Below are positions 36,467 through 38,848 of a stretch of DNA of 64,000 nt, piece after piece. Below the pieces are notes generated by a model. It was not told the DNA's origin, ran no database searches, and was given only the letters and a program-made list of their open reading frames with translations. Every line of letters starts with the position of its first letter. Position 1 is the stretch's first letter. Source of the DNA: an uncultured Rhodospirillaceae bacterium (GTDB lineage Bacteria; Pseudomonadota; Alphaproteobacteria; Rhodospirillales; Casp-alpha2); NCBI GenBank assembly GCA_963972065.1, contig CAXAVJ010000006.1, positions 133 through 64,132 on the forward strand, in the 5' to 3' direction. A program made the position numbers and the translations under genes.

Positions 36467-38848
36467 ATGGCGGACATCTACGAAATAAAGCCGGGCGCCC
36501 GGCAGGCGGGTGGGCGCCTTCAGACCGAAGGTGACGCCACAGAAGAGGCCAACGAGACCCTTCTGGAAACCCTCAGTCACGACCTGCGCACGCCCTTGAA
36601 CACCATCATCGGATTCGCCGACATGATGGACCAGGAAATTCTTGGCCCGCTGTCGAACCCCCATTACCGCGAATACGTGGAGGTGATCTCGACCGAAGGC
36701 CGGCGCATGCTGGACTTCATCAACGACCTTCTGAACCGCAAGCGCTTCGAGAACATGAAACGCACGGAACAGGGTTTCCGCCACGTCATCGAACTGGCGC
36801 CGGACCTGATCGCCGTATGCCGTGGCGGCGCCATCGACCTGATCAACCCGGCGGGCGCGGACATGCTGGGCGTGTGGCCGGCGGTCGAATTGAAGGGCCG
36901 CATCTTCACCGACTTCGTGCAGGCCGACAGCTTGGCCCATTTCCAGGGCGGGATCGAGAACCTGACCAAGGAACGCCTCCGCACGCCCATGGTCCTGTTG
37001 CGGGCCGACGGCACGACCCTGGACGTCGAGCTGGCCGCCCTGCCCTATGAGGAGCACGAGGACGACGGCGACGGCACCGCCTACATCATCATGGCCCGCG
37101 ACGTGACCGAGCGGAACCGCGCCCTCAAGGCCCAGGCGACGCGCGAAGAACACCTGCGCAAGATCATGGATACGGTCGCCGACGGCATCATCACCATCGA
37201 CGAGACCGGTACCATCGAAACCCTGAACCCGACAGCCGAGGAAATCTTCGGCTACAAACCGGGCGAACTGGTCGGCTCCAACGTCAAGGTCCTGATGAAC
37301 GAGGACGACGCCGGTAATCACGACCATTATCTGGCGCGCTACATCAACACCGGCGTGCGCCACATCATCGGCAGTGCCCGCGAAGTCATCGGCCGGCGCA
37401 AGAACGGCTCGCTTATCCCCATCGAACTGGCGGTCAGCGAAATGCGGTTCTCCGGGCGGCGCCTGTTCATCGGCGCACTGCGCGACATTACCGAGCGCAA
37501 GGAGAACGAGGAGCGCCTGCGCGACCTGGCGACCCGCGACCCCCTGACCCGGCTGCCCAACCGCAACCTGTTCACGGAACGCCTGGAAGAATCCATCGAA
37601 CAGGCCGACACGTGCGGCGTCGGTTTTGCCGTTCTGTTCCTCGACCTCGACAATTTCAAGACCATCAACGACGCCCTCGGCCATCTGATCGGCGACCGTA
37701 TTATCCAGCTGGCGGGCCAACGCGTCTGCGGCTGCGTGCGCGGCCAGGACACGGTCGCCCACCTGTCCGGCGATGAATTCATGGTCATCCTGGAAGGCAT
37801 GGACGACGAGGCCCGCGCCGCCAAGATCGCCCGCGACGTTCTGAAAAGCCTGTCACAGCCGTTCAAGGTCGATGGCCGCGAGGTCTTCACCTCGTGCAGC
37901 ATCGGCGTGGTGATGTACCCGAAAAACGCCAATTCCCTGGTCGAGCTGATGCGCAACGTGGACACCGCCGCCCACTTCGCCAAGAAGCAGGGCCGGGCCA
38001 ATTTCCAGTTCTACACGGAACAACTGTCCGAGGACGCCAGACGGCGGATCGAAGTCGAGAGCGGCCTACGCCGGGCTTTGGAGAACGATGAGTTCGAACT
38101 GGTCTTCCAGCCCAAGGTGGACCTGGAAACGCGCCGTATCATCGGGGCGGAAGCCCTGCTGCGCTGGGACAACGCCAACCTGGGCAAGGTGTCGCCGGTG
38201 GAGTTCATCCCCGTCGCCGAGGAAACGGGCCTGATCGTTTCCATCGGCAGCTGGGTATTGCGCCAAGCCTGCGAGACAGCGGCGGTCTGGATCAAGGAAG
38301 GACTGACCGCCTGCCACATCGCGGTCAACCTGTCGGCCATGCAGTTCCTGCACGGCGATCTGGCAGGCGAAATCAAGGATGTGCTCGACACCTGCGGACT
38401 CGACCCGCACTTGCTTGACGTGGAACTGACGGAAAGCATGCTGGTCTCCAACGCCGAGGAAACCATCCGCATTCTCAAGGTCATCAAAGACATGGGCGTC
38501 AACGTGTCGATGGACGATTTCGGCACCGGATATTCATCGCTCAGCTATCTGACCCGCTTCCCGCTCGACAACCTGAAGGTCGACCGCTCGTTCGTCACGG
38601 GGCTGCCCGACGACCGTGACGCCTCGGCCGTGGCGCGGGCCATCATCTCGATGGCGCAAAACCTGAATCTGAATATCATCGCCGAAGGCATTGAAACGGA
38701 AAACCAGGTCGGCTTCCTGCATGCCCTGGGCTGTCAGGTCGGCCAGGGCTATCTATTCAGCCCGCCGGTCAGCAACGAGAAGTTCATGGAACTGGCGCAG
38801 GCAGGCTCAGGCGCCTTTCTCAAGACGCCGCCCGCCGCCGGCGAATAA
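36467..38848 (+). CDS. HisKA(DHp)-PAS-PAS-GGDEF-EAL protein
   Basis: [14 protein letters not shown] H-box; two PAS domains ([11 protein letters not shown]); [14 protein letters not shown], RGQD-x5-SGDEF; [17 protein letters not shown], AEGIE. Start could be 36437. Confidence 0.9.
   Translation: [793 protein letters not shown]

Follow-up and report, generated by a model that had tools for sequence, protein, structure and literature searches.

A conserved PAS-GGDEF-EAL family of Rhodospirillales with a CA-less DHp domain as putative receiver-docking input

DivL of Caulobacter crescentus is a histidine kinase with a His-to-Tyr exchange that acts as a docking sensor of DivK~P via its response regulator-docking face and shows neither kinase nor phosphatase activity (PMC4211667). 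RedE of Myxococcus xanthus does not autophosphorylate, takes phosphate on its histidine from a response regulator and dephosphorylates another response regulator independently of that histidine (PMC2755868). Histidine kinases without HisKA or without HATPase form a recognised category (incomplete histidine kinases, iHKs; P2CS), yet the preprint concerned treats HATPase without HisKA, the opposite of the case presented here, and does not mention GGDEF or EAL (bioRxiv 10.64898/2026.02.27.708494). A survey of alphaproteobacterial cyclic di-GMP (c-di-GMP) genes mentions HisKA in EAL proteins only alongside HATPase. In this study, we analyzed a window of 64,000 nucleotides from an uncultured Rhodospirillaceae bacterium (contig CAXAVJ010000006.1, positions 133 to 64,132 of the forward strand; coordinates below are those of the window) and focus on one gene at 36467..38848 (+). 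Its product of 793 amino acids, counted from a conserved start, is organized as DHp-PAS-PAS(heme type)-GGDEF-EAL, in which the dimerization and histidine phosphotransfer (DHp) hairpin is not followed by a catalytic and ATP-binding (CA) domain. The protein is no artefact: it represents a conserved, as yet uncharacterised version of the PAS-GGDEF-EAL enzymes, in which a CA-less DHp has been exapted as input module. Full-text literature searches returned no paper on a HisKA-only GGDEF/EAL protein and no characterised DHp-only cyclase, in agreement with an earlier note on this DNA, made from the letters alone, which knew of no characterised protein with this architecture.

The longest open reading frame (ORF) at this position, 36437..38848 (+), has 803 amino acids and an in-frame ATG at 36437. 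All close homologues begin with [10 protein letters not shown], corresponding to the ATG at 36467, and the earlier choice of this start is thereby confirmed; the N-terminal peptide quoted with it, [53 protein letters not shown], is present in the translation. Pfam places HisKA at residues 39-105 of the 803-residue ORF (58.3 bits, E 8e-16, gathering cut-off 26.9), GGDEF at 365-521 (148 bits) and EAL at 544-777 (235 bits), with two PAS domains between HisKA and GGDEF. Neither HATPase_c (N, G1, F, G2 boxes) nor Response_reg has a Pfam match in the gene product even at E ≤ 1, and no profile of the Hpt or Spo0B type (HPt/Spo0B/ChpT) from Pfam or NCBIfam matches. The gap between the second DHp helix and the first PAS domain is only ~10-20 residues, and therefore a degenerate CA domain cannot fit there. 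The claimed layout without HATPase and without receiver holds, and so does the statement that a DHp lacking its CA domain is unable to autophosphorylate. In an AlphaFold2 (AF2) monomer model based on a 38-sequence alignment, the mean predicted local distance difference test score (pLDDT) is 78, and the PAS, GGDEF and EAL domains are modelled with confidence. Foldseek against the PDB gives E. coli DosP, with its layout PAS(heme)-PAS-GGDEF-EAL, as the best full-length match of this model, besides MorA, PA0575 and RbdA. Unlike the protein described here, none of these four solved GGDEF-EAL proteins has a DHp.

The DHp hairpin (36551..36751, +) comprises AF2 helices 21-56 and 65-88 and carries the phospho-acceptor His codon at 36578..36580 (+; H38 in the 793-residue protein, H48 in the 803-residue ORF). 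Its H-box reads SHDLRTPLN, with Asp at H+1 and Thr at H+4. HisKA domains depend on an acidic residue at H+1 for kinase activity and on Thr or Asn at H+4 for phosphatase activity (PMC3510030). Across 109 full-length family members the phospho-acceptor position is His in 106 and Tyr in two, and H+1 is Asp or Glu in 104; R-T-P-L shows no exchange in any ungapped row, and I, G-F-A, the loop Gly and Y..Y vary little or not at all. Mean column conservation is 0.77 for EAL, 0.73 for the DHp, 0.65 for the first PAS domain (PAS1), 0.64 for GGDEF, 0.58 for the second (PAS2) and 0.23 for the N-terminal tail, making the DHp the second most conserved segment of the protein. The tail itself (residues 1-27; 36467..36547, +) has an AF2 pLDDT below 50. 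At the end of helix 2 the family carries L(N/D)R(K/R)RFE in place of the canonical LD.S(K/R).EAG that leads to the CA domain. The hairpin reaches a pLDDT of only 50-67, as is expected in a model that folds a single chain of a putative dimer. In three family members (P0044, P0065 and L110), either H+1 is Gly (SHGLRTPLN, SHGVRTPLN) or the His is replaced by Tyr (SYDLRTPLN), the rest of the H-box being intact.

A homology search with the N-terminal 240 residues recovered more than 100 protein clusters of ~770-800 amino acids, down to 48% identity, which share the HisKA, PAS, GGDEF and EAL Pfam set and many of which lie on Mb-scale contigs. Scanning genome contigs with the full-length alignment yielded only generic PAS-GGDEF-EAL proteins, none covering the DHp, and was dropped for the distribution. 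We searched instead with the DHp-PAS1 module alone against one genome per species of the order (301 genomes). Full-length matches occur in 85 of these genomes, spread over 29 of 111 genera and at least 11 families, nearly always as a single copy. The gene order at the locus is nadE, cysS, a divergent formyltransferase-like gene, this gene, cimA, trmJ, COQ7 and DsbB. When three distant members were compared (Thalassospiraceae LMO-JJ14 [CP134604.1], GCA_048262255.1 and one ENA metagenome-assembled genome), this housekeeping neighborhood was the same in the first two and kept in part in the third. Judged from these loci, the gene is inherited vertically within housekeeping synteny. An assembly chimera, which the earlier note had named as a way for its reading to fall, or a decaying kinase pseudogene is for practical purposes ruled out: the same architecture recurs in those clusters and genomes, on Mb-scale and complete contigs from many sources, the frame is intact and under strong purifying selection, and the synteny is conserved.

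Distribution matches located in longer open frames were fetched and scanned with Pfam, revealing a series of architectures. The organization REC-PAS-DHp-PAS-PAS-GGDEF-EAL is found in families f21 and f25 and PASx3-DHp-…-GGDEF-EAL in family f6, while in two genera of the gene's own family a domain of 140-170 amino acids without assignment precedes DHp-…, and family f33 has DHp-PASx3-GGDEF-EAL. HATPase_c is absent, according to Pfam, in all seven GGDEF-EAL variants. In two further proteins, L111 (G003) and L112 (G018), a transmembrane (TM) arrangement TM-…-DHp-PAS precedes a second HisKA, which has a HATPase_c and a REC of its own. These are hybrid kinases with two HisKA domains, the first of which is the CA-less DHp-PAS1 unit, with His in L111 and Arg in L112. 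PAS1 (36773..37132, +, with approximate boundaries in our gene) accompanies the DHp, as a single module, in every architecture of the series. Since it is found in several domain contexts and with two kinds of output, the CA-less DHp-PAS1 unit is, to judge by domain composition, a portable input module and one evolutionary unit. A Rosetta-stone comparison of the REC-PAS heads of the long variants with this genome gave generic REC matches of ~35% only and no split-off partner gene.

The residue at the phospho-acceptor position, tabulated in 69 modules, differs between families. It is His in all modules of f1, f21 and f33, in the one module each of f4 and f6, and in 10 of the 11 modules of f8, the remaining one having Arg. 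Family f25 has Arg in 21 of 23 modules, with one His and one Tyr. Tyr is found in f16, f18 and f32, with Arg in the second f18 copy in G018, and the two genomes of f7 are divided between Tyr and His. Throughout, R-T-P-L-N..I.GF and the H+4 Thr are kept in every module recovered except the second copy in G018 (R-M-P-L…GY). By this residue pattern, a phospho-His is not essential to the DHp-PAS1 module.

We propose that the gene encodes a heme-PAS-regulated c-di-GMP phosphodiesterase/cyclase that is dimerised by its exapted DHp, which probably also docks a receiver domain, without a need for phospho-His; we give this reading a probability of roughly 0.45. The enzyme would be soluble and dimeric and would serve c-di-GMP turnover in a conserved Rhodospirillales family. 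Its DHp, an exapted transmitter core, would dimerise as a parallel four-helix bundle and thereby position the PAS, GGDEF and EAL domains. The conserved, receiver-facing H-box surface would dock a receiver domain, supplied in trans here, while the fused REC of f21 and f25 may play the docking part in cis. Docking, possibly with dephosphorylation of the regulator, would be read out jointly with the gas signal of the heme PAS, and the joint read-out would set the balance of phosphodiesterase versus cyclase activity. His phosphorylation would not be required by the module as such and may occur in this His-retaining lineage. As docking partner, DivK would be one candidate among the ~40 receiver domains of the genome. 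A receiver-engaging DHp that is independent of phospho-His fits best because the DHp is conserved like a catalytic domain, the H-box outlives the His, and a REC is fused to the module in two families. The phosphatase activity of EnvZ reportedly does not need the His, and the isolated EnvZ DHp is said to retain activity.

Several points weigh against this proposal. The H-box may have been kept because this DHp subtype needs it structurally, and not as a docking surface. Since N-terminal REC-PAS-kinase architectures are common, the fused REC may have no docking role at the DHp, and the REC heads of the long variants match this genome only generically (~35%). In the gene's own lineage the His is near-invariant (106 of 109), which fits a real phospho-acceptor role equally well. 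No partner emerged, and neither a response regulator nor a histidine kinase is a conserved neighbor at the three distant loci. Finally, the low pLDDT of the DHp (50-67) and the low-confidence linker to PAS1 (residues 88-111) in the AF2 monomer leave rigid coupling unsupported.

The main rival explanation, serious even if we consider it unlikely on balance, is purely structural: the DHp would be only a dimerization and signal-helix bundle left from an ancestral kinase, without partner protein, holding the PAS-GGDEF-EAL chains in a parallel dimer and relaying upstream sensors where these are present. GGDEF cyclases need dimerization, and in the long variants the DHp indeed lies in line between inputs (REC-PAS, PAS x3, TM) and PAS1, as a transmitter helix would; in our gene, however, there is nothing upstream of the DHp to transmit from. 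The repeated loss of the His in sister clades suits a structural role, as does the position of the DHp upstream of a second complete kinase core in L111 and L112, yet a simple dimeriser has no obvious need of a near-invariant R-T-P-L-N..I.GF and H+4 Thr across at least 11 families, His-less ones included. The lack of conserved signaling neighbors at the loci compared likewise agrees with a DHp that has no partner, but a dimeriser should not exceed GGDEF and both PAS domains in conservation.

The proposed receiver-docking DHp resembles DivL, in which a transmitter core is likewise reused as input, a PAS takes part in the read-out and the His is dispensable (PMC4211667), the docking in our case being predicted from the sequence. 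DivL has Tyr at the His position, and the gene's family has Tyr or Arg in several clades. In contrast to our protein, DivL retains a CA domain, carries its PAS domains N-terminal to the DHp and targets CckA, whereas the present gene lacks a CA domain, has its PAS domains downstream of the DHp and a GGDEF-EAL output in cis, and keeps the His. The gene may thus work like DivL, yet is not a DivL-type member. Carried further, by analogy, the DHp-PAS1 unit would be a portable receiver-reading input that detects, by docking instead of phosphotransfer, whether a free single-domain response regulator is phosphorylated (DivK~P being the obvious candidate), and would directly gate an O2-sensing c-di-GMP phosphodiesterase/cyclase; we put this forward tentatively and regard it as rather doubtful in this complete form. 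RedE is a less close parallel, since it retains a HATPase_c, with an ADP-dependent phosphatase activity, and lacks an output domain, unlike our gene (PMC2755868).

The heme signal in this proposal concerns PAS2 (37148..37495, +), a heme PAS of the FixL type whose proximal His is encoded at 37319-37321. PAS2 matches the FixL heme-PAS structures 8js5/1dp6 with 111 bits (E 4e-31) and ~50% identity over 133 residues. The proximal His is aligned (NHDHYLARY versus RHDSYISRY in FixL), as is the distal HIIG..R segment, and the FixL model of NCBIfam scores 137 bits. In FixL itself, the heme PAS lies upstream of a complete DHp-CA kinase. The proximal His is kept in 54 of the 109 family members and is present here; the gene therefore belongs, as far as this residue tells, to the heme-type half of its family, and O2, NO or CO are its probable regulators, as in DosP. 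The earlier call of two PAS domains was correct but had missed the heme nature of the second.

The GGDEF domain (37529..37999, +) contains SGDEF at 37766-37780 and an RxxD I-site (RGQD) at 37739-37750, so that RGQD is followed by TVAHL and then SGDEF, five residues separating the two motifs. The EAL domain (38066..38767, +) has all catalytic residues intact: EALxR, N, ExxE, the loop 6 segment [9 protein letters not shown], K, EGxE and Q. The translation and the alignments thus bear out what had been claimed for SGDEF, the I-site and the EAL residues. EAL catalytic residues are invariant or near so in alignments of 28-109 sequences, and Foldseek gives TM-scores of 0.92-0.94 to the EAL domains of MorA, BifA and MucR, which are active EAL structures. 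The GGDEF domain is more variable across the 109 members: the first residue of the motif is G in 60, S in 46 and A in 3, relatives carry GGDEF, SGDEF, AGDEF, GGDDF or GTNEF, and the I-site retains its Arg in 50 and its Asp in 83. D395, N401, D410, R419 and D436 are invariant in the alignments, and E437 is kept in 98, the catalytic Glu being lost in ~10% of members. The SGDEF of this gene may be catalytically competent. Because the EAL site is invariant and the GGDEF motif variable, c-di-GMP hydrolysis is, on the alignments, the predicted constant output of the family, while cyclase activity or GTP sensing is expected to depend on lineage.

The earlier note had also read a PleC/DivJ-type signature in the DHp and linked it to DivK and PleD. 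As a subtype the assignment is correct: similar to the PleC/DivJ/PdhS kinases, the gene has a HisKA of the form …SH[ED]LRTPLN.I.GF…GP…Y.[EDS]Y…, and among NCBIfam models the DHp fragment scores best on DivJ (62.5 bits) and PdhS (53.9 bits), with the next family at 41.7 bits. In contrast to those kinases, the gene has no CA domain and stays far under the equivalog cut-offs (62.5 versus 1000 for DivJ, 53.9 versus 2000 for PdhS), with the DHp alone aligning. In a control, eight ordinary kinases of full length were taken from this genome, and their DHp fragments scored 73-119 bits on the DivJ/PdhS models; PdhS or DivJ ranked in the top two for all eight and PdhS first for seven. The genome has 28 kinase cores that match the DivJ model and 27 that match PdhS, none near the cut-off, so that the subtype is present in at least 28 of its kinases. 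The best DivJ-like kinase (C17:19843-20598) shares 40% identity with the orphan DHp and comes 13th when the paralogs of the latter are ranked, whereas the top ones reach 50% and the top dozen 44-50%. Because ordinary kinases score higher, 28 cores match and the DivJ-like kinase ranks only 13th, the signature is not specific for DivK/PleD; in terms of sequence it marks a large alphaproteobacterial DHp subtype and is no DivK/PleD address.

The same abundance of related kinases bears on a RetS-like cross-talk, in which the orphan DHp would heterodimerise with the DHp of a paralogous kinase and be trans-phosphorylated by the CA domain of that kinase, or would titrate or localise the kinase. The genome offers at least 28 kinases of the same DHp/CA subtype, with 44-50% DHp identity for the top dozen, yet none of them stands out as the closest paralog. 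A PDB sequence search with the DHp gave weak, generic kinase matches only (≤31 bits); RetS DHp entries are among these solved structures, while DivL, CckA and PleC are not. The family, in turn, is mostly single copy and conserved across genomes with differing kinase repertoires, and we consider such cross-talk very unlikely.

DivK and PleD themselves are encoded in the genome. A classic divK-pleD operon lies at C17:32769-34517 (-), with a PleD of 598.7 bits (cut-off 474) and, immediately upstream of pleD, a receiver of 124 residues that shares 70% identity with DivK of C. crescentus; ~12 kb separate the operon from the best DivJ-like kinase. The DivK probe sequence was validated against PDB 1M5T. 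DivK orthologues are present in 203 of the 301 genomes of the order and, by reading the two lists, in 83 of 85 family-positive genomes (the exceptions being G131 and the 59%-complete G224) versus 120 of 216 family-negative ones (Fisher p = 4e-15, phylogenetically confounded). This co-occurrence was not accepted as support for a DivK link, as whole DivK-less families that also lack the module drive the association; it fails to refute the DivK idea and speaks for it weakly at most. With no response regulator or histidine kinase as conserved neighbor, no CtrA box near the promoter and a confounded co-occurrence, the specific DivK/PleD link of the earlier note is not upheld.

That note had further proposed that the DHp docks such regulators or exchanges phosphate with them to switch between c-di-GMP synthesis and breakdown. 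In its general form, the His would be phosphorylated by reverse transfer from a phosphorylated response regulator (DivK, PleD or another), and His~P would toggle cyclase versus phosphodiesterase activity. The conservation of the His (106 of 109) and of an acidic H+1 (104 of 109) in the short subfamily suits this explanation, RedE offers a precedent of transfer from response regulator to His without autophosphorylation, and divK-pleD is present in the genome, with DivK in 83 of 85 family-positive versus 120 of 216 negative genomes. Sister clades with the same module nevertheless have Arg or Tyr at the His position, the DivJ/PdhS likeness is generic and the best DivJ-like kinase no close DHp relative, the DivK association is driven by whole DivK-less families, and there is neither synteny with divK-pleD nor a CtrA box. 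Phosphate exchange as the core mechanism is thus weakened and, in our view, improbable, although the His may act as a phospho-acceptor in this His-retaining lineage.

The intergenic region 36288..36466 is common to the gene and the divergent formyltransferase-like gene. It contains TTGACG (36355-36360) and TATAAT (36380-36385) at a distance of 19 nt, picked by eye and unscored; a sigma-70 scan of 36288..36466 revealed no promoter with a 16-18 nt spacer. No CtrA box (TTAA-N7-TTAA, ≤1 mismatch) is found near the promoter of the gene, and the two matches in the 64 kb are both far from it and at chance level. The divergent gene, 35664-36287 (-), encodes a protein of ~200 amino acids with a weak Formyl_trans_N match (34 bits) and is found in divergent orientation here and at two of three distant loci (L093/L094, L095). 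Downstream, a convergent ORF without Pfam or NCBIfam family lies at 38898-39524 (-), with a probable start at 39389. It shares 65% identity over 155 amino acids with L096 8434-8919, which lies directly downstream of the orthologue in another genus. Two genera thus share this small protein as a conserved neighbor of the DHp-GGDEF-EAL gene, and the two remaining loci that were compared lack it. The cimA/leuA-like gene (HMGL-like and LeuA_dimer) that stands between this gene and trmJ in relatives (L093, L095, L096) is missing at 38849-39771 of the window. Elsewhere, a predicted protein of 480 amino acids (P0018) on a 5.6-kb contig joins GluRS domains (tRNA-synt_1c) to the HisKA N-terminus of the family (74% identity) and probably arose as a fusion during gene calling or assembly.

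DHp domains that lack a CA domain tend to be dismissed as relics. The one described here is as conserved as the catalytic EAL, is vertically inherited at a housekeeping locus and is combined with several inputs and two kinds of output, and its receiver-facing H-box persists even where the His has become Arg or Tyr. The natural His/Arg/Tyr series provides a clean genetic handle on what a DHp does without phosphorylation, be it docking, phosphatase activity or transmission. The proposed function would extend the repurposed-kinase idea of DivL from one Caulobacter protein to a broad c-di-GMP family, and it would add a new, heme-based route by which O2, NO or CO acts on c-di-GMP turnover in marine and freshwater Rhodospirillales. 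If the DHp-PAS1 unit is indeed a receiver-reading module, a quarter of Rhodospirillales species would possess a one-protein integrator of two-component state, oxygen and c-di-GMP.

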